The position numbers and the translations under genes are program-made. From positions 59,000-122,999 of the forward strand of contig JACPFR010000044.1 of assembly GCA_016182905.1 (NCBI GenBank): DNA of 64,000 nucleotides, given 5' to 3'. Positions 3,212 through 52,000 of the stretch are shown here, in pieces (position 1 is the first letter of the stretch; every line of letters starts with the position of its first letter). This DNA is from Elusimicrobiota bacterium (GTDB lineage: Bacteria > Elusimicrobiota > Elusimicrobia > UBA1565 > UBA9628). Under the pieces are notes generated by a model that was given only the letters and a program-made list of their open reading frames with translations, searched no databases and was not told where the DNA came from.

Positions 3212-3286
3212 GGCGGGGTAGCTCAGTGGTAGAGCACCGGTCTGAAAAACCGGGTGTCGACAGTTCGATCCTGTCCCCCGCCACCA
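3212..3286 (+). tRNA. tRNA-Phe: tRNA-Phe (anticodon GAA), CCA encoded
   Basis: GGCGGGG acceptor stem pairing with CCCCGCC. D-arm TAGCTCAGTGGTAGAGC. Anticodon loop CTGAAAA with GAA at positions 34-36. T-arm GTTCGATCC. 3' CCA present. Confidence 0.9.
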
Positions 3287-3290
3287 TTTT

Positions 3291-25099: not shown

Positions 25100-26640
25100 G
25101 GCAGGAAGCCGAAGCCGTTGGAGTAGAAGCCGGCCTCCCCGGTCCAGCCGCTGATGAGGCGCAGCGGGATCGGGCTGCCGACGCGGACCTCGCGCACGAC
25201 GGCCTTGAGGCTCCCCGCCGGCCTCAGGATGTTGGAGTTGACGCGGGGCACGATGACGGCGTCGCCGGGCCGGACCCCGGACCAGCCGCCCGCGGAGGCG
25301 TCGAGCACGGCTCCGCCGGCCTCCTCGACGTAGTGCTGCAGGCCCCAATGGCCGGCGCACCAGAGGCGCCCGCCCTTCGCCGCGCGCTCCGCGGCGGCCT
25401 CGCGGGCCATCGTCCGCTGAGCCCCGGCGTACTGAAAGTCGACGATGGACAGCAGCACGCTCAGGGCCGCGACCCCGGCGAGGCTGACCGCCTGCGCGAG
25501 GCGCAGACGCTTTTCGGGCCAGCGCGCCTCGAGCGCCTCCGCCAGCGAGAAGACCAGCGGCGGGATCAGGAACAGGACGAGCCGGGCGAGGATCGCCCAA
25601 TAAGCGAACAGCAGGAGGGCCGACACCGAGGCGGTCCACGCGGCCCACAGCCTCGCGCCGCGGCCCTCGGCGCGGAAGAGGGCCGACAGGGCGAGCAGGG
25701 CTCCGAAGGAGAACAGGACGCCGGCCGCGCGGTCGACGGGACGCACGAGCGGGGCGAGGTCGAACGCGGGCAGGAACAAGACGATCGCCGCGGCGGCGCA
25801 GGCGGCGACCAGGGCTTTCGACGGCCTCGCCAGCAGGGGCCAGAACGCGACGACGACGCCGCAGCCCCCGGTGAAGGACAGGAACGAGCGCAGCTTGTGG
25901 GACCAGGCGGACCAGTACATCCGCGACGCGTCCGCCGTCACGCCCGCCGCCGAATCCCACGCCCCGCTGCGGAGAAGGGCTCCCCCCAACAGCCAGCACG
26001 CCAGCGGCGCGGCCGCCAAGGCGAAGTATCCCGCCAGACGCCGAGGAGGAACGCGTCCCCACAGAAGGCACAACGCCGGCAGGGCGAGGAAGATCGCGTT
26101 GTATTTCGCCAGCAGCGCGGCGGCGAACAGCGCGGCCGAGGCCCACAGCCAGGCCGGCCGGTCCTCCTCCGCGCCGCGCGCGAGCGCGTAGAGGCTCGGG
26201 AAGGCGAAGCCCGCCATGACCTTCTCCGCCATCAGGTGGTTCATGTCGATCATGTAGGCGGGCGAGGCGACGACGATGAGCGCGGGCAGCAGCGGACGCT
26301 TCAGATAGCGCGCCGCCAGGAGGTAGAGCGCCAGGCTCGACGCCAGGTCGAAAGGCAGGAAGGCCAGGCGCATCGCCGTCTCGCCGCCCCCGGTGAGGCG
26401 CAGAGCCGCCGCCAGGAGGTAGGCCAGCAGCGGCGGCGTGTTGTTGATGCTCGACATCGGCACGGCGTCGCCGTACCAGTTGAACCGGAAGGCGAACGGG
26501 TGCAGGGGGTCGCGCAGTATCCGGCGCGCGATGGCGAGGAAGAAAGGCTCGTCGACGTGGAACGCCTTCCCCAGGAACGGGAAAAGCGCGAGCCCGGTGA
26601 AGGCGGCGACGATCAGGAGGTCCCGGCCGCGCCGCGTCAC
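25045..26640 (-). CDS. Membrane glycosyltransferase of the PMT/ArnT family (GT39/GT83-like)
   Basis: Polytopic membrane protein. Conserved N-terminal DEPFF-like loop (FHVDEPFFLAIARR). 531 aa. Convergent 55-nt overlap with the mtgA 3' end. Confidence 0.7.
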   Translation of the reverse strand: MTRRGRDLLIVAAFTGLALFPFLGKAFHVDEPFFLAIARRILRDPLHPFAFRFNWYGDAVPMSSINNTPPLLAYLLAAALRLTGGGETAMRLAFLPFDLASSLALYLLAARYLKRPLLPALIVVASPAYMIDMNHLMAEKVMAGFAFPSLYALARGAEEDRPAWLWASAALFAAALLAKYNAIFLALPALCLLWGRVPPRRLAGYFALAAAPLACWLLGGALLRSGAWDSAAGVTADASRMYWSAWSHKLRSFLSFTGGCGVVVAFWPLLARPSKALVAACAAAAIVLFLPAFDLAPLVRPVDRAAGVLFSFGALLALSALFRAEGRGARLWAAWTASVSALLLFAYWAILARLVLFLIPPLVFSLAEALEARWPEKRLRLAQAVSLAGVAALSVLLSIVDFQYAGAQRTMAREAAAERAAKGGRLWCAGHWGLQHYVEEAGGAVLDASAGGWSGVRPGDAVIVPRVNSNILRPAGSLKAVVREVRVGSPIPLRLISGWTGEAGFYSNGFGFLPYSPSAEPVEEFTVVEPL

Positions 26641-26644
26641 CGGA

Positions 26645-26881
26645 TCAGAGGCTCGTCGTGACCAAGGTCTCCGTGGCGGCGACGCCGTCCACCGAGCGGA
26701 TGCGGCTGACGATCAGGCTCGAGAGCTTGTCGACGGTGTCGGACTCCGCCGAGAGGACCATGTCCCAGCCGCCGAACACCATGTACACCTCGTTGACGCC
26801 CTCGATCGCCCGGATCGCGCGCACGGCCGTCTGCTCCTTGCCCGGCGTCAGCTTGCACAAGACGAAGGTCTTCATGCTCAT
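26645..26881 (-). CDS. Stand-alone Lrp/AsnC-type ligand-binding (RAM) domain protein
   Basis: 78 aa. AsnC_trans_reg-like region (VLCKLTPGKEQTAVRAIRAIEGVNEVYMVFGGWDMVL) with no helix-turn-helix. Confidence 0.6.
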   Translation of the reverse strand: MSMKTFVLCKLTPGKEQTAVRAIRAIEGVNEVYMVFGGWDMVLSAESDTVDKLSSLIVSRIRSVDGVAATETLVTTSL

Positions 26882-27480
26882 CTCCTAGTATTCCATTCGG
26901 CCGAACGGTAGCGTGATTCGAGTTCCAGACCTTTGGCGATCCATGACGGAAGAAGGTCGACCGAAGGTCGACCGAATTCGCGAGTGATCCCTTCGATGAT
27001 CGTCGCTTCGGGCACGCTGACCCGCAACGAGCCCTGATATAACCCTTTAACGCCTTTCTTACGCAAGGCCCCGCCTAAGATCTTCTTGTCGTCCGCGTCG
27101 ACGAGGTCGGCTTTTTCCGCCCGGGCGAAACAGCTGGCCGCGATCCCCGGCGCTTTGTCCTTGGGGCTCCACATCCCGTTGACGGTCCCGCGCGCCTTCA
27201 GGGCCTGATGGATCCCCCGGTGGATGTTCTTGTAGATCGTCTCCGGCGCGCACGTCCGGTCCCACGGGAACACGAGGCTGAAGGTGACGTCCCCGTCGTG
27301 ATGAACGATCCCCCCGCCCGTCGCCCGGCGCACGGGCGCTACGCCGGTCTTGCAGGCCGCCTTCGCGTCTTCATATCTCTGCGAGTAGCCGAACGTGCAG
27401 CCCTCGCCCTTCCACTCGTAGACGCGCAGGACGAGCGCGTCCGGCGGCGACTCGAGCAGCACGGCCTCGTCGAGAGCCAT
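26878..27480 (-). CDS. Lipoyl(octanoyl) transferase / BPL-LPL catalytic-domain protein (LipB-like)
   Basis: Start at MALDEAVLLESPPDALVLRVYEWK. Last gene of the gcv operon, consistent with lipoylation of GcvH. 200 aa. Confidence 0.65.
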   Translation of the reverse strand: MALDEAVLLESPPDALVLRVYEWKGEGCTFGYSQRYEDAKAACKTGVAPVRRATGGGIVHHDGDVTFSLVFPWDRTCAPETIYKNIHRGIHQALKARGTVNGMWSPKDKAPGIAASCFARAEKADLVDADDKKILGGALRKKGVKGLYQGSLRVSVPEATIIEGITREFGRPSVDLLPSWIAKGLELESRYRSAEWNTRR

Positions 27481-27512
27481 ATGGCCCGCCGCGTCGAGGA
27501 CGAGCCGGCGGC

Positions 27513-30330
<2,818 letters not shown>

Positions 30331-30344
<14 letters not shown>

Positions 30345-30732
30345 GCGCGGCCTCGGCTTTCAGGAACTCCTCGTACGCCGCCTCGGTCATGAGCTTCGCC
30401 GCCTCGTCGGGAGCGGACGCCTTGAGCTTGAACAGCCAGCCCTTGCCGAAGGCCTCGGCGTTGACGAGCGCGGGGTCCTTGACGACGTCCGCGTTCACCG
30501 CGGTGATCTCGCCGGAGACCGGGGCGTAGATGTCGAAGGCGGCCTTCACCGACTCGACGACGCAGCACGCCTCGCCCTGCTTGACCGTGCGGCCGACCTT
30601 CGGGGGTTCGACGAAGACCACGTCCGTGATCTCCTTCTGCGCGTGGTCGGAGATGCCCACCGTGCCCGCGTCGCCCTGCAGGTCCAGCCACTCGTGCGAC
30701 TTCATGTACATTAATTTCTTCGGATCGAGCAT
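30331..30732 (-). CDS. gcvH: Glycine cleavage system H protein
   Basis: HEWL ... VGISDHAQ ... lipoyl-lysine motif ESVKAA. 133 aa. Confidence 0.9.
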
Positions 30733-30735
30733 AAA

Positions 30736-31854
30736 TCAGGCCCCCTTCTTGAGGTTAGGTGAGATGTAAAACGGCGTTTTGACGATCTCCGCGGCGATGT
30801 CCCGTCCGTGAAGTACGACCGAGACTTTCGTTCCCGGCGGGAGGTCCGGTCTATCAAGGTACCCCGTCCCGATGCCCGCCTGCAGGCTCGGCGAGTACGT
30901 CGCCGAACAGAACTTCCCGATCTCCTTGCCGTCCAGCATGACCGAGGCGCCCGCGCGCGGCACGCCGCGCTCGAGCAGCTTCACGCCGGTGAGCTTCTTC
31001 TTGATGCCCTCCGCCTTCTGCTTGACCAAGGCGGCCTTGCCGATGAAGTCGCCCTTGTCCAGCTTCACGACCCAGCCGTAATTGGCCTCGAAGGTGCTGA
31101 GGTCGTCGTCGAGGTCCTGTCCGTACAGGAGGTAGCCCGCCTCGAGGCGGAGCACGTCGCGGGCGCCGAGGCCGCACGGCGCCGCGCCGAGCGAACGGCC
31201 CTGCGCGAGCAGGTCCTCCCAGACGCGGACGACGATCTCGCTGGGCACGATGAACTCGCAGCCGTCCTCGCCGGTGTAGCCGGTGCGGGTGATGAAGGAG
31301 GGCTGCCCGTACAGCTCGAGCTCAAGCGCGCCGAAGCGCGGCAGGGACGCCATCGCGGGGGCGATCATCGACGCGATCTCGGCCGCCTTCGGACCCTGGA
31401 CCGCGATCATGCCGTAGAGGTCGGACTTGTTCTCGAGCTTCACGTCGAAGCCCTTCGCGTGCTTCTGGAACCAGGCGAAGTCCTTGTCGGCCGTGGCCGC
31501 GTTGACGACGATCAGGTAGCGGTCCTTGGCGAGGCAGGAGACGATGACGTCGTCGACGACCCCGCCCTTCTCGTTGGGCAGGTGGGAGTAGATCGCCTTG
31601 CCCGGGCCGATGCGGGAGATGTCGTTGGCGTTGACCTTCTGAAGGAAGGCGAGCGCGCCGGGGCCCGTCGCGAACACCTGGCCCATGTGGGAGACGTCGA
31701 ACAGGCCGCAGCGGTGGCGCGCGGCCTCGTGCTCCTTCATGATCGATTCGTACTGGACCGGCAATTCCCACCCGTGGAAATCGACGATCTTACCGCCCAG
31801 GTTCTTGTGGCTTTCGTACAGCGCCGTGCGACGCGCGACAGCCGAGGTGGACAT
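30736..31854 (-). CDS. gcvT: Glycine cleavage system T protein (aminomethyltransferase)
   Basis: TALYESH ... VDFHGWELPVQY ... GLFDVSHMG. 372 aa. Confidence 0.9.
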   Translation of the reverse strand: MSTSAVARRTALYESHKNLGGKIVDFHGWELPVQYESIMKEHEAARHRCGLFDVSHMGQVFATGPGALAFLQKVNANDISRIGPGKAIYSHLPNEKGGVVDDVIVSCLAKDRYLIVVNAATADKDFAWFQKHAKGFDVKLENKSDLYGMIAVQGPKAAEIASMIAPAMASLPRFGALELELYGQPSFITRTGYTGEDGCEFIVPSEIVVRVWEDLLAQGRSLGAAPCGLGARDVLRLEAGYLLYGQDLDDDLSTFEANYGWVVKLDKGDFIGKAALVKQKAEGIKKKLTGVKLLERGVPRAGASVMLDGKEIGKFCSATYSPSLQAGIGTGYLDRPDLPPGTKVSVVLHGRDIAAEIVKTPFYISPNLKKGA

Positions 31855-31932
31855 ATGACTAAATTAGCATTTAGCAATAAGTCCGACAATGACCGCGGCC
31901 ACCGCCCGCGACGGCGCCGGATTCGCCGTTTT

Positions 31933-31946
31933 ATGACCATGGTCAT
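31933..31946. promoter_or_regulatory. 14-bp perfect palindrome ATGACCATGGTCAT in the divergent gcvT / 31999-gene intergenic region
   Basis: Seen directly in the sequence, centred on CCATGG. Lies in the gcvT 5' leader on the minus strand. No glycine riboswitch consensus was found here. Confidence 0.35.
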
Positions 31947-31998
31947 GGTCGAGGCGCGGGCAGGGCCTTCATACTAACGAGAAGCGAACAGGAGAACC

Positions 31999-33159
31999 AT
32001 GAACTCGAATCCCTCCGTTTCGGCCCCGGCGCGCGCGATCGGAAGCCTGCTGCTGGCGCTGGCGCCGTTCGCGCCGCCGGCGGCGGCCCAAAGCACGCGC
32101 CATTACGAGGCCGCCGACCCGAACGCGTCCGGCGAGGACGCGAAGGCGTCGCCGGCCCCTGCCGCCGCGGCGTCGCGTCCGGCCCGCTCGGCCCCTCGCG
32201 TCTTTCGCGTCGTCCGGCCCGGAGGCATCCACGCCGAGGCGAACGTGGAGAGTTCGGCCCCGGTCATGGGCGAAGTCGAAGCCGTCGTCGGAGCCGGCAT
32301 CGGTACCGGCGCGAAGGACAAGAGCCCCGGCGCCAATCCCGCGAGGCGCTACTGGGGCGGCTCGAACGGGGCCTCGACCGCTCCCGCGAAGCCGATCACG
32401 TCCTCCGGTCCCAGCGGCCCGGCGAAGCCGCCCAAACAAGGGATCCGCGTCGTCGACGACAAGAAGAACCCGATCGCCTCGGGCTCGTTCTTCGACACGC
32501 AGACCGTTTATTTCCAGATCTTCGGCTACGACGAGAAGGACACGTCCGTTTGCCTGGAGAGCCTGGTCATGAAGGGAGACCTATTAGGGGACTGCGCCGA
32601 TTTCGTGAAATTGCCCGACACGACTTACTCGATCAGCTACAACAACGGGAGATTCTCCTACGCCAACGGGATATGGGAAGCGAGGTACAAGAGCATCTAC
32701 TGGTACGACACGCTGCGCATCTCAGTGACCAACTCGAAGGGCGAGAAGTCGGTCAAAACGTTCCGTACCACCGGCTCGGAAACGCACCCCTCCGCGCTGG
32801 GCCGCCACTTCGTCGACGGCAAGGTCAAGAACTCGCCGTACAAGAGAGGGGAGATCGTCGAGGTCCATATTTTCGGATTCGACGAGAAGGACGCTTTTGT
32901 CTGCACGCAGATCCGCGACGACGCGACCCATGCCGACATCGCCGTCTGCTCTCCGTACGCCGATTTCAGCCGCTTCACGAAGCTGCCGGGCCAAAACTGG
33001 TCCTATCAAAACGGCGCTTGGGTCAAGAAATTCAACACCAACGACATGAGGCTGGATACGACCTATTACGTGCGCCTCAGGAACTCGAAGAACGCCGAGT
33101 ACGCGGACATGCTGCAGTTGATGAGCCACCCCCCCGGCTTCGTCGTGGGGCCGAACTAG
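31999..33159 (+). CDS. Secreted protein with two tandem copies of a roughly 70-aa Cys-containing domain; C-terminal half in a low-GC segment
   Basis: Signal peptide present. Internal repeat: FFDTQTVYFQIFGYDEKDTSVCLE...LPDTTYSISYNNG versus IVEVHIFGFDEKDAFVCTQI...LPGQNWSYQNGAW. GC falls to roughly 55% over 32450-33160. Confidence 0.55.
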   Translation: MNSNPSVSAPARAIGSLLLALAPFAPPAAAQSTRHYEAADPNASGEDAKASPAPAAAASRPARSAPRVFRVVRPGGIHAEANVESSAPVMGEVEAVVGAGIGTGAKDKSPGANPARRYWGGSNGASTAPAKPITSSGPSGPAKPPKQGIRVVDDKKNPIASGSFFDTQTVYFQIFGYDEKDTSVCLESLVMKGDLLGDCADFVKLPDTTYSISYNNGRFSYANGIWEARYKSIYWYDTLRISVTNSKGEKSVKTFRTTGSETHPSALGRHFVDGKVKNSPYKRGEIVEVHIFGFDEKDAFVCTQIRDDATHADIAVCSPYADFSRFTKLPGQNWSYQNGAWVKKFNTNDMRLDTTYYVRLRNSKNAEYADMLQLMSHPPGFVVGPN

Positions 33160-40332: not shown

Positions 40333-42315
40333 TTGGCGTCGAATGAAAAAGCCGGGCGGCCGCTCTGGTCGCTCGGCTTTTTCATTATACTGTCCGCGTC
40401 CGCCGCTCACGCCATGAACCATAACGTCCTGCATCGCACGCCGCTCGACACCGCCGGGTCCCGCGCCGCGGGCCTCGAGCGTCTGCCTTTCGCCGAGGGC
40501 CTGTACCGCACCAAAGCCGCGACGGCCTCGCTCGAGTCGCGGGATCTCGAGGCCCCGTTCCCGTTCGACGACCTCGTGGGTTCCTTCGCAGCGGAGGTTC
40601 CCGCCGGGGGCGAGGCGGAGCTGAGCGTGAAGGTCCGCTTCGCGGACGGCTGGAGCGAGTGGTTCTCGCTCGGCAGCCTCCGCTCCGACGGCTGGAGCTC
40701 GCCCGCCGCCGTCCCCGCCGCCGCCGCCGTCGACGCGCCCGCGGCCGTGGACGTGGACACCCTCAAGCTCAAGAAGCCGGCCTCCGCGTTCCGCTACCGC
40801 GTGAAGCTCAAGGCCGGCAGGAAGCCGGTGCGCCTGCGCTCCGTCGCCGTCGCCGTGTCCGACGCGGAGGCCCCCGCCGCGCCGCCCGCGTTCGCGTCCG
40901 GGCCGTGGGTCCGCGACCTCGGCCTTTCCCCCCGCTCGCAGGGCGACGCGCAGGAGAAGTACAAGCACGACATCTGCTCGCCGACCTCGCTGGCGATGGT
41001 CCTCGAGCATTGGGGCCGGAAGCTCGACCTCGAGGCGGTCGCCCTCGCGGCGCAGGACCGCGGCTCCCAGCTGTTCGGGAACTGGCCCGCGAACGTCGCC
41101 TACGCCGGCTCGCTCGGCCTCGAAGGCCGCGTCGCGCGCCTCGAGTCGCTGGCCGACGTCGAGTCCGAGGTCGGGCACGGCCGCCCGGTGATCGTCAGCG
41201 TGACCTTCTCCGAGGGCGAGCTGCCGAACGCCCCGATCAAGAGGACGCGCGGCCACGTCATGGTCGTCGGCGGCTTCACCGCCGAGGGCGACGTCGTCGC
41301 CTACGACCCCGCGGGCAAAGGCAAGGAGGGCGTGCGCCGCGTCTACGCGCGGGCCGCGTTCCACAAGGTCTGGCGCGGGCGCAAGCGCGGTCTGGCCTAC
41401 CTGATCGGCCCCACCTTCCCCCGCGAGTTCACCGTGGGCGCGCCCGTCGCCGACCTGTGGACGAAGCCGGTCCGCCGCGCCGGCGTCAAGCTCGACGACG
41501 AGGCGCATCTCTCTCAGATCCTCTACGGCGAGGTCGTGACGGCCCTCGAGGCGAGAGGCGAGTGGGTCCGCGTGCGCGCCGAAGAGCAGGAGAGCTTCCT
41601 GCATTCCGGCGATTGGCAGGGCTACCCGGGCTGGATGAGGGCGGACGCCCTGGTGTCGGCGCCCCCGCCCAGGTCCGGGCCGATCGTCCGCGTGCGCCAG
41701 GCCCTGCTGCAGCGCGGCGACGACCTGCTGACGCTCTCCGTGGGCACTCGCCTGTCCTTCGTCTCGGACAGCGGCAGCGCGACCGTCGTGCGCCTCCTCG
41801 ACGGCTCGCTCGCCGAGATCCCGTCGGCATCTCTGTACGCCGCGCCCGCCGAGCCGACCGCCGCCTCGCGCGCCGAGATCATCCGCACCGCCGAGCTCTT
41901 CCTCGGCACCAGCTATTACTGGGGAGGCCGCTCCGGCGTCCAGCCGGACCCGAAGATCGGCGTGGACTGCTCCGGCCTCGTGAGCCTGGCCTACCGGATC
42001 CACGGCCGCGACGTCCCGCGCGACTCCCACGAGCAGAAGCTGCACGCCAAGCCGACGCGCAGCGCCGCGCTGCAGGCCGGGGACCTGATCTTCCTCACCG
42101 ACGACGAGACGAGCGAGCGCATCACCCACGTCATGATCTTCACCGGCGGCGACGGGCTCATCGAGAGCCGCAAGTCCTCGGGGCGCGTGCTGCGCACGAC
42201 CTTCCTCGAGCGCTTCGGCCAGCCCCTGACCGCCATCGAGTCCGGCGACGCGGTGAGCGACCTCTCGTTCCCCCGTCCCCGCCGGCGCCGGATCTTCTTC
42301 GGCTCGTATTTCTAG
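40333..42315 (+). CDS. Secreted peptidoglycan hydrolase with peptidase C39-like domain and C-terminal NlpC/P60 domain
   Basis: Signal peptide present. C39-like region HDICSPTSLAMVLEHWG. NlpC/P60 region GVDCSGLVSLAYRIHG ... HVMIFTG. 660 aa. Confidence 0.75.
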   Translation: MASNEKAGRPLWSLGFFIILSASAAHAMNHNVLHRTPLDTAGSRAAGLERLPFAEGLYRTKAATASLESRDLEAPFPFDDLVGSFAAEVPAGGEAELSVKVRFADGWSEWFSLGSLRSDGWSSPAAVPAAAAVDAPAAVDVDTLKLKKPASAFRYRVKLKAGRKPVRLRSVAVAVSDAEAPAAPPAFASGPWVRDLGLSPRSQGDAQEKYKHDICSPTSLAMVLEHWGRKLDLEAVALAAQDRGSQLFGNWPANVAYAGSLGLEGRVARLESLADVESEVGHGRPVIVSVTFSEGELPNAPIKRTRGHVMVVGGFTAEGDVVAYDPAGKGKEGVRRVYARAAFHKVWRGRKRGLAYLIGPTFPREFTVGAPVADLWTKPVRRAGVKLDDEAHLSQILYGEVVTALEARGEWVRVRAEEQESFLHSGDWQGYPGWMRADALVSAPPPRSGPIVRVRQALLQRGDDLLTLSVGTRLSFVSDSGSATVVRLLDGSLAEIPSASLYAAPAEPTAASRAEIIRTAELFLGTSYYWGGRSGVQPDPKIGVDCSGLVSLAYRIHGRDVPRDSHEQKLHAKPTRSAALQAGDLIFLTDDETSERITHVMIFTGGDGLIESRKSSGRVLRTTFLERFGQPLTAIESGDAVSDLSFPRPRRRRIFFGSYF

Positions 42316-43671
42316 ATGGCGAAAAAACCCCTGATCCACTTCGTCGGCATCGGGGGCGCGGGCATGAGCGCGCTGGCGCAGATCCACGCCATGGACGGCG
42401 GCCCGGCGACGGGCTCCGACCGGGACTTCGACCGCGGGCGGGGCGCGGGGCTGAAGGCCAAGCTCGAGGCCCTCGGCGTGAAGCTGTTCCCGCAGGACGG
42501 CAGCGCGCTCACCGATGGAACGGAGCTCGTGGTGCTGTCCACCGCCATCGAGGACTCCAACCCCGAGATCGCCGCGGCCAAGGCCCGCGGCGTGCCCCTG
42601 ATGCACCGCTCCGAGTTCCTGGCCCGCCACGTGTCGGAGATGCGCACCATCGCGGTCACCGGCACGAGCGGCAAGTCCACCGTCGTCGCGATGATCTTCG
42701 AGATCCTCGAGGCCGCCGGGCGCGGGCCGTCCGTCATCACCGGCGGCGCGCTGATCGCGCTTCAGAAGCGCGGGCTCACCGGCAACGCCTTCCGCGGGAA
42801 GTCGGACATCCTCGTCGTCGAGGCGGACGAGAGCGACGGCTCCTTGGTCAATTACAAGCCGGCCGTCGGCGTGTTCCTCAACCTGACCAAGGATCACCTG
42901 GAGGTCTCCGCCCTGCGCGAGATCCTCCTCAAGTTCCGGCTCCACGTCGCGACGGCGCTGGTCAACGGGGACGACGCCGCGCTGGCCGGCATCCGCGCCG
43001 ACGCCACGTTCGGCTTGTCGTCCGGCTCCGTTCACGCCGAAGGCCTCGAGCTCGAGGCCGCCGGCTCTCGGTTCCGCGTGAAGGACGTCTCATTCGAGCT
43101 TCCCGTCCCCGGCCGTCACAACGCCGAGAACGCGATCGCCGCGATCGCGGCGTGCGTCAACGAAGGCGTCTCGCTGGCCGACTGCGCCCGGGGATTGGCC
43201 GGCTTCCAGGGCGTGACGCGCCGCTTCCAGAGTCTCGGCTCCGCGCGCGGGGTGGAGGTCGTCGACGACTTCGCGCACAATCCGGCGAAGATCGCGGCGA
43301 CCCTCACCGCCGCCCGCCTGCGCGGCCGCCGGACCTTGGCCGTCTATCAGCCCCACGGCTTCGCGCCGACCCGCCATCTCAAGAACGAGCTCATCGCGGC
43401 CTTCGCCGAGGGCCTGCGCCCCGAGGACCGGCTTTGGCTGCCCGACATCTACTACGTCGGCGGCACGGCGAGCAAGGACATCTCCTCGAACGACGTCGTC
43501 GCCCCGCTGAAGGCCAAGGGCCTTCACGCCTTCCACGTGCCCGACCGCGCCGCCATCGCCGCCCTGATCGCCGCCGAGGCGAAAGAGGGAGACCTCGTCA
43601 TCGTCATGGGCGCGCGCGACCCCTCCCTGTCCGACTTCGCCCGCGAGGTCCTCGCGGCCTTGCGTCCCTGA
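42316..43671 (+). CDS. Mur ligase (UDP-N-acetylmuramate--L-alanine ligase MurC-like or murein-peptide ligase Mpl)
   Basis: IHFVGIGGAGMSALAQ ... VTGTSGKSTVVAM ... DESDGS ... HNAENA. Stand-alone rather than inside a dcw cluster, and next to a peptidoglycan hydrolase. Confidence 0.8.
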   Translation: MAKKPLIHFVGIGGAGMSALAQIHAMDGGPATGSDRDFDRGRGAGLKAKLEALGVKLFPQDGSALTDGTELVVLSTAIEDSNPEIAAAKARGVPLMHRSEFLARHVSEMRTIAVTGTSGKSTVVAMIFEILEAAGRGPSVITGGALIALQKRGLTGNAFRGKSDILVVEADESDGSLVNYKPAVGVFLNLTKDHLEVSALREILLKFRLHVATALVNGDDAALAGIRADATFGLSSGSVHAEGLELEAAGSRFRVKDVSFELPVPGRHNAENAIAAIAACVNEGVSLADCARGLAGFQGVTRRFQSLGSARGVEVVDDFAHNPAKIAATLTAARLRGRRTLAVYQPHGFAPTRHLKNELIAAFAEGLRPEDRLWLPDIYYVGGTASKDISSNDVVAPLKAKGLHAFHVPDRAAIAALIAAEAKEGDLVIVMGARDPSLSDFAREVLAALRP

Positions 43672-43723
43672 TCTCTCACGGATAATGCCGTAAAAACAAT
43701 CATTTATCCTCATTTCCGCGCCC

Positions 43724-43771
43724 TGTGGATATGTGGATAACTTTGTTAATTGTTATATTACTTATACATAT
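43724..43771 (+). promoter_or_regulatory. AT-rich regulatory region: tandem DnaA-box-like 9-mers TGTGGATAT / TGTGGATAA plus a promoter-like TTGTTA ... TATACA
   Basis: TGTGGATATGTGGATAA at 43724-43740 (reverse complement of the TTATCCACA consensus). A roughly 45% GC island lies about 110 nt upstream of the 43880 gene. Confidence 0.35.
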
Positions 43772-43879
43772 TTGTAACATGACAATTTAGGGCTCAGGCC
43801 GCGTCTGGGCCCTTCGGCCCCTCGCCCCGGGGGCACGCGGCCCCATGCGCCGGGCGGCGCCGGAGCCTATCCTTAGACC

Positions 43880-45421
43880 ATGAGGATCCAAGGTATCCTG
43901 ATGTCGGCGCTTCTCGCGATCTCGATCACCTCCCAGGCTCAGACGATCGTCCCCGATCCCGCCGTCATCGAAAGCCTCGGACTGACCGCCGCCGACGCCG
44001 GCTGGACCTACCGCGAGCCCGGCCGCGACGCCAAGGTCATCGCCGCGGAGGATTCCGCCAAGGTCGACGAGTTCCTGAAGACCGACGCCTCATCGAGCGC
44101 GAAGCTGGCGGCGTGGTGCCGAGAGCGCGGCGTCGAGCCCGAGAACGCGGTCGCCGCTCTGCTCGCCCCGCGTTCCTCATCCGGCCCCGCCGCCGTCCCC
44201 GCCGCGCATGACGACGCCGTCGCGGTCAAGGAAGCCGCCGAGCGCGGCCGGGCCCTGTCCGCTTCGCTGGGCTCCGCTCCCGATTTCGACGCGGCCGGCC
44301 ATCGCCCGCTCGACGCGACCTTGCGCTGGGGCTCGGCGCCCCGCGCCGAGGCGACGGGACGGAACCTGGAGACCCTGTACGGGCTCTACGGCCGCGGCAC
44401 GGACGCTCTCCTCGACAAGGCCGGCGCCGGCTCCGGCGGGACCGGCATGGCGGCCCGCATCGCCAAAGCGCCGCTGGACCTCGGCCTGGCCTGGACGACG
44501 ACCTTGGCCGGCCACGAGCTCGGACACTTCGAATCGGCCTGGCTGGCCGGCGCGAAGAACGTGTCCTGGGCCAAGGCCGACGGCCCCTACGCCTTCGGCC
44601 GCATCACCGAGGTCGCCTCCGAGGACTGGGCGCGGATGTCCGCCGCGGGACGCCAGGCCTTCAACGCGGGCGGCACGATGGCCACGCAGGCCGCCGCGGC
44701 CGCCCTGCGCTCCTCCCTGTTCGAGCGCGGAGAGGCCGACTGGACGCAGTGGCCGCTGATGTTCTTCCGCAAGGTCGACATGACCGCCTACGGCCTGACC
44801 GCCCCCAAGCCGTCGCAGGCCGGCGCCCTCGACGGAGCCAACGACATGACCAGCTACGCCCGCCTCTACGGCGAGCGCTCCGGCCGCGGCGGCGACGCGG
44901 TGCACGGCGACATCGTGCGCGGCGCGGTGTGGAACATGCTCGACCCGATGGGGCTTTACTCGGCCTATGGCTATCTCGGCCGCTACGTGATCGGCGGCGA
45001 GCGCACGCAGAAGGTCCCCGGCGTCGAGCTCTGCGGCCGGACCTGGATGGCGGGCACCGGCTTCTGGCTCTCCGAGGTCGGCGCGCGCTACTCCATGACG
45101 GTCCTCTCCCGCGGCAGGAAGGGCGATGTGATCGAGACGACCGTCTCGACCGGCGAAGGACAGCCGGCCGCGGCCGTGCGCTGGTCCGACGACGTCGGCG
45201 CCGGGATCCGCGCCCGGGTCGGCGTCGACGCCTGGAGCCAGCGCGAGGCGGCCGAGCAAGGGCCCAAGAGCTTCGGCGGCGCCCTCAGCGCCGGCGCGGA
45301 GAAGAAGTTCGGACGCGTCTCCGCCTTCGCCGAGGTCGGCCAGAAGACCACGGGCGCGATGCTCGGGCAATCCCACGGCGGCGGGACGTTCTACACCGCC
45401 GGCCTCTCGGGCAGCTTCTGA
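43880..45421 (+). CDS. Secreted HExxH-motif protein (putative zinc metallopeptidase of unassigned family)
   Basis: Signal peptide MRIQGILMSALLAISITSQAQ. LAGHELGHFESAWLAG. Gly-rich, C-terminal Phe. 513 aa. Confidence 0.5.
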   Translation: MRIQGILMSALLAISITSQAQTIVPDPAVIESLGLTAADAGWTYREPGRDAKVIAAEDSAKVDEFLKTDASSSAKLAAWCRERGVEPENAVAALLAPRSSSGPAAVPAAHDDAVAVKEAAERGRALSASLGSAPDFDAAGHRPLDATLRWGSAPRAEATGRNLETLYGLYGRGTDALLDKAGAGSGGTGMAARIAKAPLDLGLAWTTTLAGHELGHFESAWLAGAKNVSWAKADGPYAFGRITEVASEDWARMSAAGRQAFNAGGTMATQAAAAALRSSLFERGEADWTQWPLMFFRKVDMTAYGLTAPKPSQAGALDGANDMTSYARLYGERSGRGGDAVHGDIVRGAVWNMLDPMGLYSAYGYLGRYVIGGERTQKVPGVELCGRTWMAGTGFWLSEVGARYSMTVLSRGRKGDVIETTVSTGEGQPAAAVRWSDDVGAGIRARVGVDAWSQREAAEQGPKSFGGALSAGAEKKFGRVSAFAEVGQKTTGAMLGQSHGGGTFYTAGLSGSF

Positions 45422-47121
45422 TGCGGATCCGCGCGCTCCTCGCCGCGCTCCTGCTGGCCGCGCCCGCCTCGGCCCAGACGCGCGTCGCCGCGCCGGTCAC
45501 GAGCGTTCTTCCGCTTCGGATCGGCGTCGCGCCGATCCCGTCGCCGTCCGCTCCCGGCAGCCTCTCTCCGGCGCCGTCCCTGTCCGCGCCGCCGTCGCTG
45601 TCCGCCGTTCCGCTCGCCTCGCCTCTGATCGCTCCTTCCGCCATTCTGGCCGTCCGCCCCGCCGCCTACGCCCCTCTCCCGGTGAAAGTCGCGGCGCTCG
45701 ACGCCGGGATCTCGCGAGTCGTCGCCTCGCTCGCCGCCGACCCGGCCTCCGGCGCCGCCGCGCTGACCGCGGGCCGGGACATCGAAGCGCTGCTGACCGG
45801 CGCCGTCGTCTCCGCGCCGTCCGCGGCCGACGCGGCCGCCTCGCCGGAGGAGCTGGCCTTCGCCGTCGGCGCCTCGCAGGCGCTCGCCGCGCGCGCCGAC
45901 GACCTCGGCGCCGCGAAAGGCCTGAAGGCGCGGACCATGAGCGGCGCCGATTTCACGGGCATGCTCGACGAGGCCCGCGGCTCGGGAGCCCCCGCCCCGA
46001 CGCCCGCCGCCGCCGCGGCCGTCAAGGAGATCGAGGCGGCGGTCGTGCGCTTCGTCCGCGCCCTCGTCCCGGCGGACAAGCCGCTCGTCGAGAGCCTGAG
46101 CCGCGCGCTCGCCGTGTGGCAGGTCTTCGACCAGGAGATGTCCATCGCGGCGTCGAAGGGCACGCTCGGGGCGATCGTCGCCGACGCCGAGCTCTTCGCC
46201 TCGCAGGTCGAGGCTTCCGCGGCCGTACCGTCCGTCGAGCCCGCGCCGGCCGCCGCGCAGGCGACGCTCGCCCCGTCGACTCCGAAGGAAGTGCGCCCGG
46301 AGGACCCGAACGATTACGCCTCCGTGGCGGTCCCCGGCAGCATCTTCGGCTGGCAGCCGATCGAGAAGTCCCCCAACCACGGCTTTCCCCCGCTCGACGC
46401 GCTGATCCGCAAGGTCCTCGGCGAGAAGAAGAGCGCCTACGCGAAAGGCTTCGAGCTTCCCGGCGCCGCCGAGCGCGCGGACGCGAAGGTCTATTTCTAC
46501 GGCGAGCGCCACACCGACGGCGAGTTGATCAGCGCCAACATGAGGCGCCTCGTGTCGGACGCCCGCCCCGGGAAGCCGGTCATCGTCCTCGTCGAGGGCT
46601 ACACCGGCTGGGCCATGCGCGGCTGGCCGGCGCTCAAGTATCTCGCCGACCGCGGCCTCGACCCCGGCGCCCTGGCGGAGAAGGACATCCCGAGCGCCTT
46701 CGTCGAGGTGCGCGGCTGGGAGAACACCGTCCACTACGACGACTCCAAGCACCCGCTCCTGCAGCACCACATGGATCAGCTCGCGATGAACCACCTCGCG
46801 CACGGCGAGCTGCGCGGCTGGCGCTACTACCGGGAGATGGCGCGCGCGGCGCTGGCGGCCTGGCGCTCCTACCGCGAGCTGTGGCGGGCGGCCATCGTCG
46901 TGCGCAACGGCGACCTGAACGCCGCCGTCGCCAAGGCGGCGGCCGACGCGGACGCGTCCGGCGCGACGGTGCACGTCATCGCGGGCACCGACCACCTGAT
47001 GCAGAACCCGCGCCTGGTCGGCCTGCCGCTGATCGGACGCCCGTCCTTCCGCGAGACCTTGCGCGACGCCCTGGGCGGCCGCCCGTTCTGGGCCAGCCAG
47101 CCCCCCAACACTCAGGACTAG
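45421..47121 (+). CDS. Secreted protein with C-terminal ChaN/TIKI/EreA-superfamily domain
   Basis: Signal peptide and Pro/Ala/Ser-rich linker. KVYFYGERHTDGE ... PVIVLVEGYTGW resembles the ChaN GExH / E motifs. TGATG overlap with the upstream gene. Confidence 0.5.
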   Translation: MRIRALLAALLLAAPASAQTRVAAPVTSVLPLRIGVAPIPSPSAPGSLSPAPSLSAPPSLSAVPLASPLIAPSAILAVRPAAYAPLPVKVAALDAGISRVVASLAADPASGAAALTAGRDIEALLTGAVVSAPSAADAAASPEELAFAVGASQALAARADDLGAAKGLKARTMSGADFTGMLDEARGSGAPAPTPAAAAAVKEIEAAVVRFVRALVPADKPLVESLSRALAVWQVFDQEMSIAASKGTLGAIVADAELFASQVEASAAVPSVEPAPAAAQATLAPSTPKEVRPEDPNDYASVAVPGSIFGWQPIEKSPNHGFPPLDALIRKVLGEKKSAYAKGFELPGAAERADAKVYFYGERHTDGELISANMRRLVSDARPGKPVIVLVEGYTGWAMRGWPALKYLADRGLDPGALAEKDIPSAFVEVRGWENTVHYDDSKHPLLQHHMDQLAMNHLAHGELRGWRYYREMARAALAAWRSYRELWRAAIVVRNGDLNAAVAKAAADADASGATVHVIAGTDHLMQNPRLVGLPLIGRPSFRETLRDALGGRPFWASQPPNTQD

Positions 47122-47146: not shown

Positions 47147-48970
47147 ATGAAACGAGCGCTCGCGGCCGCGTTGCTCCTGGGCATGGCGCTGCCCGCCTAC
47201 GCCCGCACCAAGGCCCGGATCAAGGCCGAGACCCTCCCCGAGGAGCCCCGCCTCGCCGCGGCCGCGCCCCTGTATCCGGCGCGCTCGACCGAGCCGATCG
47301 TCTTCGTCTGGCCGACGGAGAACATGCCGCTCGCGGCCGAGAACGAGTTCATCTTCGGCTCGGTCTCCCCGGCGACCGCCCCGTTCACGATCAACGGCGT
47401 CACCGTCCCCGTCCACCGGGACGGAGGCTTCCTCGCGTTCCTGCCGATCGCGCCCGGCACCTTCACCTTCCGGGCCGAGCTGGCGCTCTCCTCGACGACG
47501 ACGGCGACGGCGGAGAGGCATATCCTCGTGCCCATGCCCGCGCAGCCCTTTCCCGGGAAGCTCGGCATCGATCCCGCCTCCCTGTCGCCCAGGGCCGACC
47601 TCGACCTGCGCGCCGGGGACTGGCTGACGGCGCGAATGAAGGGGACCCCCGGCAAGCCCGCGCGCTTCCGCGTGGGCAAGGGTCCCTGGCAGGAGATGCG
47701 CGGCTCCAACGCCGCGCTCGGGCTCTATGAAGGAACGCGGCAGATCGCGCTCGGCGAGGAGTTCGAGGCGGCGCCCGTCGTGTACGAGCTCGGGAAAGGC
47801 TGGTCGTCGGTCAAGCTCTCCGGCACGGCCCGCGTCTCGGCTTCGGCGCGCGATTCCCTGATCGCGACCGTGAAGACCAGCACCGCGGGCTTCGTCGCGG
47901 TCAAGACCGGCCCCGCCAACGGCTTCCTCTCCTTCCCGCTGGCCGGCACCCGGCTCACGGTGACCGGGCGCGAGAACAGCTCGCTGCGCGTGCGCCTGTC
48001 CGACTCCCTGTCCGGCTGGGTCGAGGCCAAGGACGTCGAGCTTTCCTCCGGCACGCCCCCCCGCGCGGTGACGGGCACGATCGGCGTCGCCAAGACCGCC
48101 CTCGGCGCGGCGGTGAAGATCGGCCTGTCGGAGAAGGCCGCCTTCGACGTCGAGCCCTCGGCCGGGCTCGACGCGCTGACGATCCGCCTCTACAACGCGG
48201 TCGGCCACACGAATTGGGCGGTCAACGAAGCCCCCGACCTCGTCTCGGAGGTCCGCTGGCGCCAAGAGGCCAGCGACGTCGTGGCCGTGACCATCCTGCT
48301 CAAGCCCGACGAGGTCCTGTGGGGCTGGTGGCCGTCCTACGAGGGGGGCGCCTTGCGCCTCGAGCTCCGCCGCGCCCCCAAGATATCGGATTACAAGCCG
48401 TTCTCTGGGATCACGATCATGCTCGATCCCGGGCACATGCCGTCGGCGACCGGCGCGACGGGCCCGCTCGGCACGCGCGAGATGGACGCGAACTACGCGA
48501 TCGCGGTCGCCGCGAAGGCGCGCCTGGAGCGGGCCGGCGCGTCCGTGCTGATGACGCGCAGCGACCCCCTTCACGAGGTCTCTCTCGTGGACCGGCCGAA
48601 GCAGGCCGTCGAGCGGGGCGCCGACCTCTTCGTGAGCCTGCACAACAACGCCCTGCCCGACGGCGAGAACCCGGCGGCCAAGCCGCGCGGCTTCACCGTC
48701 TTCTACTACCACCCGCAAAGCCTCGAGCTCGGCCGCGCCGTGCACGAGGCCTACCGCGGGCGGATCAAGCTGCCCGACGAAGGCCTGCGCTGGGGCAACC
48801 TGCTCGTCTCCCGTCAGAGCGCGATGCCGGCGATCCTCGTGGAGAACGCCTACATGATCCTCCCCGAACAGGAGGCCCTGCTCAACGACGCCGCGTTCCG
48901 CGACGAGCTCTCCCGGGCGCTGGTCGAGGGCCTCGAGCGGTTCTTGCGGAACGCGCGGAGGAAGCCATGA
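47147..48970 (+). CDS. N-acetylmuramoyl-L-alanine amidase (Amidase_3, AmiC-like) with N-terminal beta-rich domains
   Basis: Signal peptide present. GITIMLDPGH ... ANYAIAVAAKARLERAGASVLMTRSD ... DLFVSLHNNA. 607 aa. Confidence 0.85.
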   Translation: MKRALAAALLLGMALPAYARTKARIKAETLPEEPRLAAAAPLYPARSTEPIVFVWPTENMPLAAENEFIFGSVSPATAPFTINGVTVPVHRDGGFLAFLPIAPGTFTFRAELALSSTTTATAERHILVPMPAQPFPGKLGIDPASLSPRADLDLRAGDWLTARMKGTPGKPARFRVGKGPWQEMRGSNAALGLYEGTRQIALGEEFEAAPVVYELGKGWSSVKLSGTARVSASARDSLIATVKTSTAGFVAVKTGPANGFLSFPLAGTRLTVTGRENSSLRVRLSDSLSGWVEAKDVELSSGTPPRAVTGTIGVAKTALGAAVKIGLSEKAAFDVEPSAGLDALTIRLYNAVGHTNWAVNEAPDLVSEVRWRQEASDVVAVTILLKPDEVLWGWWPSYEGGALRLELRRAPKISDYKPFSGITIMLDPGHMPSATGATGPLGTREMDANYAIAVAAKARLERAGASVLMTRSDPLHEVSLVDRPKQAVERGADLFVSLHNNALPDGENPAAKPRGFTVFYYHPQSLELGRAVHEAYRGRIKLPDEGLRWGNLLVSRQSAMPAILVENAYMILPEQEALLNDAAFRDELSRALVEGLERFLRNARRKP

Positions 48971-49851
48971 TCACGCCCGGCGCCGGAGCCCTGCCCGCCC
49001 TCGTCGACATCCTTCATTTCCTGTCCGCGGCGAAGGAGGCCGAGGAGGACCAGGTCTGGGCCCGCGTCCTCGACAAGCTCTCCGCGTCGCTCGACTGCGA
49101 GGCCGCGACCTATTTCGTCTTCCTGCCCAAGCCGCAGCAGCTCATCGCGCGGGCGGCGCTCGGCGCCGCGGGACATCGCGTCGAGTCGCGGCGCGTCGAG
49201 TCGGGCAAGGGCCTGTGCGGCTGGGTCGCGAAATACCGCGAGCCCGTGCTGACCGTCGACGCCTACTCGGACCCGCGCTTCCTGAAGGACCTCGACGCGG
49301 AGACCGGCTTCAAGACGAGCCATGTCCTCGCCGTGCCGCTGCTCGACCGGATGGAGCTGATCGGCGTCTTCGAGCTCATCAACAAGCGCGGCGGGCCTTT
49401 TTCCGAGGCCGACCTGGCCTTCGTCCAGGCCGCCACCTCGGCTTGCGCGATCGCGCTGCGCGCGATCCGTTTAGAGTCGACGGTCGACAAGGTCACCGCC
49501 CACAACGCGTCCATACTCGAGAACCTCGGCGGCGGCTTCGTCGCGGTGGACATCCACGGCCGCGTGATGCTGTGCAACCCGGCCGCGAAGAGCATCCTCG
49601 GCCTCCCCGGCGACCTGCCGATGAACCAGCCGGTGGACGCGACCTTGCTCACGATCCCCGAGATGGCCGAGATCCTGATGGACACCTTGGTCAAGAAGGA
49701 GACGGTCAAGCGCCGGGACCTGCGCTGGAAGCACAAGGGCGAGAGCCGGACGCTCGGCTACTCGACCTTGCTCATCCAGGACCCGCACGGGCAGGTGGTC
49801 GGCGCGGGCGTCACCTTCCAGGACATCACCTCCTTCCAGAAGAAGGCATGA
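48967..49851 (+). CDS. GAF + PAS domain signalling protein (no output domain)
   Basis: ATGA overlap with the amidase. GAF region [25 protein letters not shown]-like C-terminus. 294 aa. Confidence 0.65.
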
Positions 49852-49885
49852 AGGCTCCCGGCTTCAGCCAAGTGTAAGTGAGACG

Positions 49886-50296
49886 ATGAAGGCCCACACC
49901 GAATACCTCTTCTTCGAGACCCCCGAGCGCCGGGCGCTCGTCAACATCACCGAGCGCCTCGCCGCGATCGTCGCGAAATCGAAGATACAGGAAGGGATGT
50001 GCCTCGTCTCCGCGATGCACATCACCGCCGGCATCTGGGTCAACGACGAGGAGCCCGGCCTCAAGCAGGACCTGATGGACTGGCTCGAGCGGCTCGCTCC
50101 CGTCGCGGACTACCGCCACCACCGGACCGGAGAGGACAACGGCGACGCCCATCTCAAGCGGACCTTGCTCGGCCACCAGGCGCTCCTGCCGGTCACCGAA
50201 GGCGCCCTCGACCTCGGCCCCTGGGAGCAGGTGTTCTACGCCGAGTTCGACGGCCGCCGCCGCAAGCGCGTCGTCGTCAAGGTGATGGGCGAGTGA
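49886..50296 (+). CDS. YjbQ/UPF0047 family protein (secondary thiamine-phosphate synthase-like)
   Basis: 136 aa. Conserved [10 protein letters not shown] ... [13 protein letters not shown]. Confidence 0.75.
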
Positions 50297-51117
50297 AGCC
50301 GGCGCTGCTCCTCTGGCCGCTGCTCGCCGCGGCGCTCCTCTACCTCGGCCTGCGCCGCTTCGAGCGGTCGATGACCTTCGTCCCCTCGCGCGAGATGCTC
50401 GCCCACCCCGGCACCGTCGGCCTCGCCTACGAGCCTTTGTTCCTGACCGCCTCCGACGGCGTGAAGCTCCGGGCCTGGTGGATCCCCGGCCCATCCGAGG
50501 ATTCCCCGGTCATGCTCTGCCTGCACGGCAACGGCGGCAACCTCTCGCACCGAACCGACAAGATGCGCCTGTTTCACGACGCGGGCGCCGCCCAGCTGTG
50601 GCTCGACTGGCGCGGCTACGGCGAGAGCGCCGGGACCCCGGACGAGCCGGGCCTGTACCGCGACGCGCTCGCCGGCTGGGCGTGGCTCAACGCGGTCAAG
50701 GCCGTCCCCGCTTCGCGCCTCGTGCTCTACGGCGAGTCGCTCGGCGGCGCCCCGGCCATCGAGCTCGCCTCGCGCGTGCCCGCCGCCGGCCTGATCGTCG
50801 ACAGCTCGTTCACCTCGGCCGCCGACATGGCCCGGCACATCCTGCCCCGCTTCCCGGTCCGCCTCCTCAGCGCGCGCTTCGACAACCTCGCCCGCCTGCC
50901 GCGCGTGACGATCCCGACGCTCTTCCTGCACAGCCCGCAGGACGACATCATCCCCTACGCGATGGCCCTGAAGAACCTGGGCGCCTCCGGCTCGGCGAAG
51001 AAGCGCCTCGTCGACCTCAAGGGCTCCCACAACGAGGGCTTCCTCGACTCGGGGCCGACCTACCCGAAGGCGATCCGGGAATTCCTGGCGTCGCTGCCGG
51101 CGGAACCTAGGAAATAG
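50293..51117 (+). CDS. Alpha/beta-hydrolase (S33/S9-like serine hydrolase) with N-terminal membrane anchor
   Basis: GTGA overlap with the upstream gene. LCLHGNGGN ... GESLGG nucleophile elbow. Confidence 0.7.
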
Positions 51118-52000
51118 CCGTTCCCTCCCCCAGAATCCGCCGCCGCTCCGAATCGTTATGCGCCCTGCACAACAGCCGAAGATTTCCTATCTCGTCCGTG
51201 CCTCCGAGCGCGCGCGGCTTCACATGGTCCACCTCCAGGGACCTTCGTGCCAAGCACCTGACTCCCGTCGTTCCAATGTAGGCGCACCGCGCGCCGTCGC
51301 GCGCCCAAACGGAGCGGCGCACTCTTGCCGGGAGGGAGCTCCCGCCCTTAACGGGCGATAGGCGGCCCGGCAGTCCCTTTTCCGGATCGTGACGCGCCAG
51401 ATAATCCCGGGCTATCTCCAGAAGGATCTCGTCGATGGCTCCGCTCGGACATTTATGCCCCAGCAGTTGACGGGCTCGATCTATCGCCTCGCGAAGGGCC
51501 AGGGGACCTCGGAAACTGAAATCGACCCGCAGGACTGGAGCGCCATCCGTCCCCGACCCCGAAGCGACCGCGACGACACGGACCGAGCTCCTCCTTTCCG
51601 GTTCAGGCCGCAAGGGCGCGAGCATCTCGTCTATTTGCCGGGCGGATTTCCCCTCCGCCCGGGAGATGATCTCCGGGGCGTCCGGACGATGAACGAAGGG
51701 CGCTATCTTCGAAACGGCCGACAAAGACAGCTGACCGTCGGCCAGCGCTGAGAGCAGCTCGGGACGGGAGACCGTCGCCCGCGCGGCGTGGATCCTCCGA
51801 TATGATTCATCCTCGCTGAGCTTCAAGCGTCGGATGCAAAAGTCGAACGTGGAAGAATAGCCCCATTCTTCGGGAAGCTTCCGCCTGTCGGCTTCGCCGA
51901 GCCAGGACAGAAAGGAATGGAGGCGCTCGCGCTCCTCTTCCACGAAGCGATCGAGCCTCGCCAGCAGTTCCTCGCTCGACAACGACCTCGGGTCATCCAT
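51107..52000 (-). CDS. DUF222 + HNH endonuclease domain protein, in a roughly 62% GC patch
   Basis: C-terminal HNH motif EVDHVKPRALGGTDEIGNLRLLCRAHN. N-terminal DUF222-like region. Local GC is clearly below the surrounding 70-72%. Confidence 0.75.
   Translation of the reverse strand: MDDPRSLSSEELLARLDRFVEEERERLHSFLSWLGEADRRKLPEEWGYSSTFDFCIRRLKLSEDESYRRIHAARATVSRPELLSALADGQLSLSAVSKIAPFVHRPDAPEIISRAEGKSARQIDEMLAPLRPEPERRSSVRVVAVASGSGTDGAPVLRVDFSFRGPLALREAIDRARQLLGHKCPSGAIDEILLEIARDYLARHDPEKGLPGRLSPVKGGSSLPARVRRSVWARDGARCAYIGTTGVRCLARRSLEVDHVKPRALGGTDEIGNLRLLCRAHNDSERRRILGEGTAIS

Follow-up and report, generated by a model that had tools for sequence, protein, structure and literature searches.

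Two adjacent exported proteins of an Elusimicrobia bacterium, a predicted TIKI-type hydrolase and a predicted outer-membrane barrel protein, as probable recent neighbors

Two overlapping genes located between positions 43880 and 47121 of a 64,000-nucleotide stretch of DNA from an uncultured Elusimicrobia bacterium were analyzed. The whole stretch, with a G+C content of about 70%, is called the window and all positions refer to it; gene 1 stands for the gene of the protein with a HELGH motif and gene 2 for that of the protein with the YGERHTD…VLVEG signature. The reading favored here, with somewhat better than even confidence, is that the genes encode two real and evolutionarily independent exported proteins, which became neighbors by a recent insertion and have the functions proposed below. 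From analogy with characterized enzymes, the gene 2 product would be a hydrolase of the periplasm and represent a new family, restricted to Elusimicrobia, of the TIKI/ChaN/erythromycin-esterase superfamily. The gene 1 product, judging from its structural model a predicted outer-membrane barrel protein, belongs as a divergent member to an unannotated family of proteins of about 400 aa that is widespread in diderm bacteria. A preliminary description of this DNA, made without database searches, had presented the two genes as a functional pair. The locus calls for caution in this respect, since overlapping stop and start codons can mark a recent insertion, as here, instead of an old partnership.

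Gene 1 and gene 2 in related genomes

The overlap reported in the preliminary description was borne out by the coordinates, with the TGA stop codon of gene 1 (45419–45421) and the ATG start codon of gene 2 (45421–45423) having one base in common. One-base stop/start overlaps are frequent in bacterial operons and nothing unusual by themselves. The gene 2 product showed 100% identity to the protein HYV14_13935 from a metagenome-assembled genome. In protein searches, every close homolog of gene 1 and gene 2 with a named source was labelled as coming from Elusimicrobia.

The adjacency had been interpreted as a functional pairing, i.e., a co-evolved and co-secreted pair in which, for example, a protease activates the other hydrolase and acts with the amidase in envelope remodelling. 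Several features of the locus fit such a pair: the TGATG overlap itself, the lack of a Shine–Dalgarno sequence of gene 2's own in this strain, the export of both proteins and the presence of peptidoglycan enzymes among their neighbors. The arrangement of the window was also found in locus L090 (gene 1 and gene 2 products 87% and 86% identical, respectively) and in two more close relatives, HYX59_14435/14430 and NDJ72_09480/09475. However, the adjacency did not extend beyond close relatives. In L089, from the same metagenome as L090 and with a gene 2 product 88% identical, the order was C39/NlpC-P60, Mur ligase, gene 2, Amidase_3, GAF-PAS, YjbQ and hydrolase, without gene 1. The cluster without gene 1 was also found in L007 and L092 (gene 2 66–67% identical), and on the short contig L093 (72%) gene 2 directly followed the Mur ligase gene and was followed by Amidase_3. 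Gene 1 homologs of 51–70% identity were located at other, unrelated loci without gene 2, and gene 2 homologs occurred alone. The two families differ in their distribution as well, that of gene 1 being spread over many phyla and that of gene 2 being found in Elusimicrobia only. These observations argue against the pairing claim and make a co-evolved pair very unlikely.

A recent insertion is the preferred explanation of the adjacency. In L089, L007 and L092, gene 2 was preceded by a leader of the form ...GGGACCTTCGGCCCAGG.CAAA...TATACT... and then ATG, with a GAGG Shine–Dalgarno sequence in L089 only. In the window and in L090, gene 1 takes the place of this leader, and gene 2 begins at the overlap without a recognizable Shine–Dalgarno sequence. 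Gene 1 would have been inserted between the Mur ligase gene and gene 2, displacing the leader and Shine–Dalgarno sequence of the latter, and gene 2 would be expressed in this strain by coupling to gene 1. This arrangement makes co-expression of the two genes in this strain likely, but it does not show a functional partnership. The TGATG overlap is thus taken to reflect a recent insertion and not an old functional partnership.

The conserved unit consisted of the C39/NlpC-P60, Mur ligase, gene 2, Amidase_3 and GAF-PAS genes, a slot of variable content (YjbQ or AhpC) and the hydrolase gene, and it was limited to one clade. All four downstream genes named in the preliminary description (amidase, GAF-PAS, YjbQ and hydrolase) were present at 47147–51117. 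The statement that the pair heads an operon holds for the layout of this strain, but the conserved cluster begins upstream, at the C39/NlpC-P60 and Mur ligase genes. As for the suggested envelope-remodelling set, the cluster in which gene 2 lies makes a connection of this gene to the envelope or peptidoglycan plausible, but the association with the cluster ends beyond one clade.

Three further observations concern these loci. The slot occupied by YjbQ in the window holds an AhpC/TSA peroxiredoxin gene in L007 (11448–11924), and no YjbQ match was obtained in L091 and L092. P0010, a protein 70% identical to the gene 1 product and encoded on contig L106, adjoins genes of the OmpA family, YkuD (L,D-transpeptidase) and Peptidase_M15, with no gene 2 nearby; it represents a second, independent envelope/peptidoglycan context for gene 1. 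In L002, the 407-aa gene that precedes the gene 2 homolog was checked for hidden homology to gene 1 and turned out to be unrelated.

Predicted structure and function of the two products

Inspection of the sequences by eye indicated that the N-termini of the gene 1 and gene 2 products are typical Sec signals (MRIQGILMSALLAISITSQA/Q and MRIRALLAALLLAAPASA/Q, the slash preceding the Q) without a lipobox cysteine. The claim that both proteins belong to unassigned families proved right, as neither of them matched Pfam or NCBIfam at E ≤ 1.

Wnt proteases, Ras-cleaving toxins and macrolide-resistance enzymes are among the members of the TIKI/erythromycin-esterase superfamily, to which gene 2 adds an exported family from a phylum that has been little studied. 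The predicted structure of residues 290–566 has an alpha/beta architecture in which helices flank the parallel beta-sheet at the core, as in the superfamily; the predicted local distance difference test (pLDDT) score was mostly above 90 over residues 310–566 and 70–83 over residues 290–309. This model supports a TIKI/ChaN/EreA fold for the C-terminal domain. The characteristic motifs are VYFYGERHTDGE (residues 357–368), YGERHTD (360–366) and VIVLVEG (387–393).

The candidate catalytic residues of gene 2 are E362 and H364 (46504–46512), E392 (46594–46596), R495 and N496 (46903–46908) and H525 (46993–46995). In the predicted model, they are placed at the C-terminal ends of the strands 357–362, 387–391 and 516–522 and in the long helix 466–513. 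Sequence spacing and strand positions correspond to the 2His/2Glu pattern, i.e., E-x(1-2)-H, a Glu about 28 residues later and G-x-x-H. The active site of EreC comprises E47/H50/E78/R261/H289 (PMC7979712), and the catalytic 2His/2Glu motif of RRSP comprises E3900, H3902, E3930 and H4030, accompanied by the conserved arginine R4001 (PMC6254334). The spacing between His and the following Glu is 28 in gene 2, EreC and RRSP alike. A basic residue also precedes the last His by 28–30 positions, with R495 being the counterpart of EreC R261 and RRSP R4001. None of E362, H364, E392, R495, N496 and H525 was substituted in any of the 93 homologs, which reach down to about 40% identity (gaps were present in two or three sequences per site), and the same was true for H320, D326, D366 and Y394. 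The earlier assignment to a ChaN/TIKI-like group was therefore sustained at the superfamily level by the fold and by a full catalytic set kept in the 93 homologs, and the conservation of the catalytic residues, which had been named as a check, was confirmed. The complete active site makes the gene 2 family directly testable.

By analogy with EreC and RRSP, H364 would be oriented by E362, and H364, E392 and H525 would together position and deprotonate a water molecule attacking an ester or amide carbonyl, with R495 stabilizing the oxyanion. Such chemistry would not necessarily require a metal. Tiki is metal-dependent, whereas EreB, Bcr136 and RRSP work without a metal (PMC6254334), and the term metallo-hydrolase used for gene 2 in the preliminary description is not implied by its site.

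The substrate of the gene 2 product is most likely a cell-envelope peptide or a peptidoglycan-derived compound, because gene 2 belongs to a conserved cluster with NlpC/P60, Mur ligase and Amidase_3 genes. This inference is weak, since the gene 2 homologs of 62% identity or less lie outside the peptidoglycan cluster, in unrelated contexts. If the proposal is true, a family of TIKI-type hydrolases that work in the periplasm on envelope peptides or peptides derived from peptidoglycan would have gene 2 as its first member.

Homologs of gene 2 were detected only in Elusimicrobia, whether the query was the whole protein (71 matches) or a C-terminal domain profile. The database comparisons weigh against the proposed assignment. 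The isolated domain, together with eight distant homologs, gave no Pfam match even at E ≤ 10, and the alignment of the domain profile with that of E. coli YbaP (TraB family) in hhalign had a probability of 0.2%, both profiles being very shallow and the comparison having little power. A profile search of Protein Data Bank (PDB) sequences with gene 2 returned nothing. Because no match was obtained with Pfam/NCBIfam, PDB sequences or YbaP, gene 2 is a new family at the superfamily level only, outside the curated ChaN-type, erythromycin esterase and TraB/PrgY/GumN families.

Comparison with characterized members of the superfamily revealed further differences. EreA/B/C and the Ere-like proteins Bcr135/Bcr136 of Bacillus cereus (PDB 6xcq, 2qgm and 2rad) have no sequence-level Pfam match with gene 2. 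Unlike the Ere proteins, the gene 2 product is exported, possesses an additional helical region and a linker rich in Pro and Ala, lacks a macrolide-resistance context and has relatives in Elusimicrobia only. The 2His/2Glu+Arg motif and its spacing are common to gene 2 and RRSP of the Vibrio MARTX toxin (5w6l; the eukaryotic Tiki1/2 being grouped with it as TIKI-type endopeptidases). RRSP also depends on an N-terminal lobe made of helices, and the helical region of gene 2 is its architectural analog. Among gene 2 homologs, no Pfam domains were detected except for an adenylate kinase fusion. Of the two homologs P0091 (777 aa) and P0068 (793 aa), one has this C-terminal adenylate kinase and the other an N-terminal extension of about 240 aa; these architectures may be gene-calling fusions or real.

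The gene 1 product belongs to a much broader family, comprising at least 318 clusters in an exhaustive profile search (318 at E ≤ 1e-3) and 241 loci confirmed by a pattern scan of species-representative genomes. The hosts of the 79 loci listed among these 241 included Legionellaceae, Francisellaceae, many Chlamydiota, Bacteroidota and Verrucomicrobiae, and also Aminicenantes, Latescibacterota, Ignavibacteriae and others. The family thus spans many diderm phyla, relatives of intracellular pathogens among them, and has no Pfam or NCBIfam model. No meaningful match to either database was obtained for 60 of its members, all named members are annotated as hypothetical proteins, and profile searches of PDB sequences with the family gave nothing or chance phage matches with E of about 0.25. 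Conserved neighbors of the wider family, analyzed at 69 loci, were lineage-specific only. A 5200-aa protein, P0187 (unnamed in the source), matched the family profile internally (residues 2204–2460, E 1e-11); the match lies in the second half of the profile and takes in the beta region and a portion of the helical domain.

Most family members are 400–440 aa long and carry QHExFGHG (HExxGH). Among 125 full-length members, the motif had the form H-E-x-x-x-H in 99 and HExxH in 22, including the clade of the window, in which HELGH occupies residues 212–216 (44513–44527). HExxH was invariant in the 18-sequence Elusimicrobia subfamily of gene 1. The residues H212, E213, H216 and D322 were present in 209–212 of the 213 aligned members (D322 in 212 of 213), and R193, Y304 and Y326 were nearly invariant. 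Mean-field direct coupling analysis (DCA) couplings among H212, E213 and D322 came from one outlier sequence and were not used.

The AlphaFold model of the gene 1 product (pLDDT 79) consists of a strand at residues 145–151, a helical domain at 155–371 with the motif inside helix 186–222, and long antiparallel strands at 376–512. Nine of the 11 predicted strands showed a period of 2 in the family-averaged hydrophobicity, and the two long helices a period of 3.6. Mean-field DCA of 213 sequences, which is independent of AlphaFold, revealed antiparallel ladders between consecutive strands, with values of 0.16–0.44 relative to a background 99th percentile of 0.15. Phe was the C-terminal residue in 31% of the 125 full-length members and F, Y or W in 36%; the protein of the window ends with ...FYTAGLSGSF. 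[quoted passage not shown] The predicted Sec signal, amphipathic meander, to which strand 145–151 may also belong, and C-terminal aromatic beta-signal correspond to those of outer-membrane barrels, and the barrel reading is adopted because the hydrophobicity period, the DCA ladders and the C-terminal aromatics agree with it independently of the model. The best matches in a Foldseek search against the PDB were the small porins KdgM, NanC and Omp33, all matches to outer-membrane barrels being weak, and no sequence relationship to known outer-membrane barrels was found in the Pfam/NCBIfam and PDB-sequence searches. The C-terminal part resembles small outer-membrane barrels, but these lack a helical domain of about 225 residues with an HExxH-type motif.

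The conserved H-E-x-x-(x)-H and Asp residues probably form a metal-dependent hydrolytic site, in which H212, H216 and D322 would serve as metal ligands and E213 as the base. On this basis gene 1 is tentatively placed in an undescribed, phylum-spanning class of integral outer-membrane metallo-hydrolases, with the helical catalytic domain situated in a small beta-barrel or forming its giant loop, although this remains less probable than not. Such a class would have members in Legionellales, environmental Chlamydiota, Bacteroidota, Verrucomicrobiota and Elusimicrobiota. We know of no outer-membrane enzyme (OmpT, PagL, PagP, LpxR, OMPLA) that uses an H-E-x-x-(x)-H + Asp site. The family joins an outer-membrane-type barrel to a conserved motif resembling a metal site, and it would, if the proposal is true, represent a new kind of outer-membrane hydrolase. 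Three observations weigh against this proposal. Position 267 is Glu in 152 of 213 members and Met in the protein of the window, the R-x-R-E sequence that follows the motif in most of the family is absent from the subfamily of the window, and the ladder between the first and last strands, which would close the barrel, reached 0.13, below the background 99th percentile of 0.15.

Different functions were weighed for both products. Instead of a hydrolase, the gene 2 product could be a ligand-binding protein without enzymatic activity, comparable to the cofacial haem binder ChaN. The two share the superfamily fold, but the ChaN of Campylobacter jejuni (PDB 2g5g) is a haem-binding lipoprotein, whereas gene 2 has no lipobox, no Pfam match and neither an iron-uptake nor a TonB-receptor gene nearby. 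Gene 2 retains, moreover, the complete 2His/2Glu+Arg set required for catalysis in EreC and RRSP, unsubstituted in the 93 homologs, and a ChaN-like role is accordingly quite unlikely.

Regarding gene 1, the preliminary description suggested a zincin, and a soluble periplasmic or secreted zincin-type metalloprotease, whose beta-sheet packs on the helical domain without forming a membrane barrel, has to be considered. The H-E-x-x-H of the gene 1 product in the window lies in a predicted helix, D322 could be the third metal ligand, and the HExxGH of the wider family is also the zincin motif of DPP III (family M49). Structure prediction, proposed earlier as a check for both proteins, yielded the TIKI-like fold for gene 2 but no zincin fold for gene 1: none was present among the Foldseek PDB matches listed, in a search in which the helical domain was not used alone. 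Pfam, NCBIfam and PDB sequences likewise gave no match to a zincin or peptidase family. The zincin assignment was therefore not shown, though a remote relationship to the zincins may exist, and a soluble protease of this type is fairly unlikely. A plain outer-membrane channel or structural protein, in which the His, Glu, His and Asp residues hold a structural metal or a plug, was judged unlikely to a slightly greater degree. The porins among the structural matches and the absence of conserved enzymatic partner genes in the family are in line with it, but the His, Glu, His and Asp, as well as R193, Y304 and Y326, are almost absolutely conserved from phylum to phylum, as would be more typical of an active site, and a conserved 225-residue helical domain is unusual for a porin. 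The helical HEx(x)GH + Asp domain of gene 1 has no known counterpart, and the widespread, unannotated family of this gene is the more novel aspect of the two genes.

Features of the locus and the window

Table 1. Positions of the two genes, their domains and the neighboring features in the window
Feature	Position	Strand	Remarks
Peptidase_C39_2 + SH3 + NlpC/P60 protein	40333–42315	+	Pfam/NCBIfam scan; upstream part of the cluster
MurC/Mpl-type ligase	42316–43671	+	Pfam/NCBIfam scan; upstream part of the cluster
AT-rich spacer (208 nt) upstream of gene 1	43672–43879	+	Likely promoter/regulatory region
Gene 1	43880–45421	+	513 aa, exported, HELGH; diverges within its widespread family, which is unannotated
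Gene 1, signal peptide (aa 1–20)	43880–43939	+	From sequence; N-terminus kept in close homologs
Gene 1, clade-specific small N-terminal domain (aa 27–95) and disordered linker (aa 98–143)	43958–44308	+	Both absent from shorter members
Gene 1, helical region (aa 145–371)	44312–44992	+	H212, E213 and H216 in a long helix; D322 invariant family-wide
Gene 1, C-terminal amphipathic antiparallel beta-meander (aa 376–513)	45005–45418	+	Outer-membrane-barrel-like; ends ...GLSGSF
TGATG stop/start overlap of gene 1 and gene 2	45419–45423	+	Kept in L090
Gene 2	45421–47121	+	566 aa, exported; homologs detected in Elusimicrobia only
Gene 2, signal peptide (aa 1–19) and Pro/Ala-rich low-complexity linker (aa 20–85)	45421–45675	+	Sequence and model; linker pLDDT <50
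Gene 2, helical accessory region (aa 86–268, conserved core 142–268)	45676–46224	+	Absent from more distant, shorter members
Gene 2, TIKI/ChaN/EreA-like hydrolase domain (aa 290–566)	46288–47118	+	Model and homolog alignment
Amidase_3	47147–48970	+	Pfam scan; downstream of gene 2
GAF-PAS protein	48967–49851	+	Start overlaps the Amidase_3 stop as ATGA
YjbQ/UPF0047	49886–50296	+	Pfam scan
Alpha/beta hydrolase	50293–51117	+	GTG start at 50293 overlaps the YjbQ stop

The spacer between the Mur ligase gene and gene 1 is strongly AT-rich against the G+C content of the genome. It contains a 19-nt imperfect palindrome (43748–43787) and, at 43704–43740, three of the four DnaA-box-like 9-mers of the window (TTATCCACA, with at most one mismatch), including a tandem TGTGGATA repeat. 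The 5' part of this element was kept in L089, which lacks gene 1, and in L090, which has it, and was absent from L007. The spacer may be a promoter controlled by a regulator or by DnaA. A replication origin at the DnaA-box-like cluster was not adopted, as the cumulative GC skew had a local maximum, not a minimum, near 40 kb.

A tRNA-Ser(GGA) was called by ARAGORN on the minus strand at 42502–42588, inside the coding sequence of the Mur ligase. The only tRNA detected in the window by the Rfam scan at the gathering threshold was tRNA-Phe at 3212–3283, and the ARAGORN call is probably spurious. Between the alpha/beta hydrolase and endonuclease III genes, a gene of an HNH/DUF222-type endonuclease was located on the minus strand (51107–52000). 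It was present in L007, L090 and L091 and absent in L089 and L092, and this patchy presence suggests a mobile HNH gene. The G+C content was 0.59–0.66 at positions 1–4000 and 26000–32000 of the window, relative to 0.68–0.75 elsewhere.

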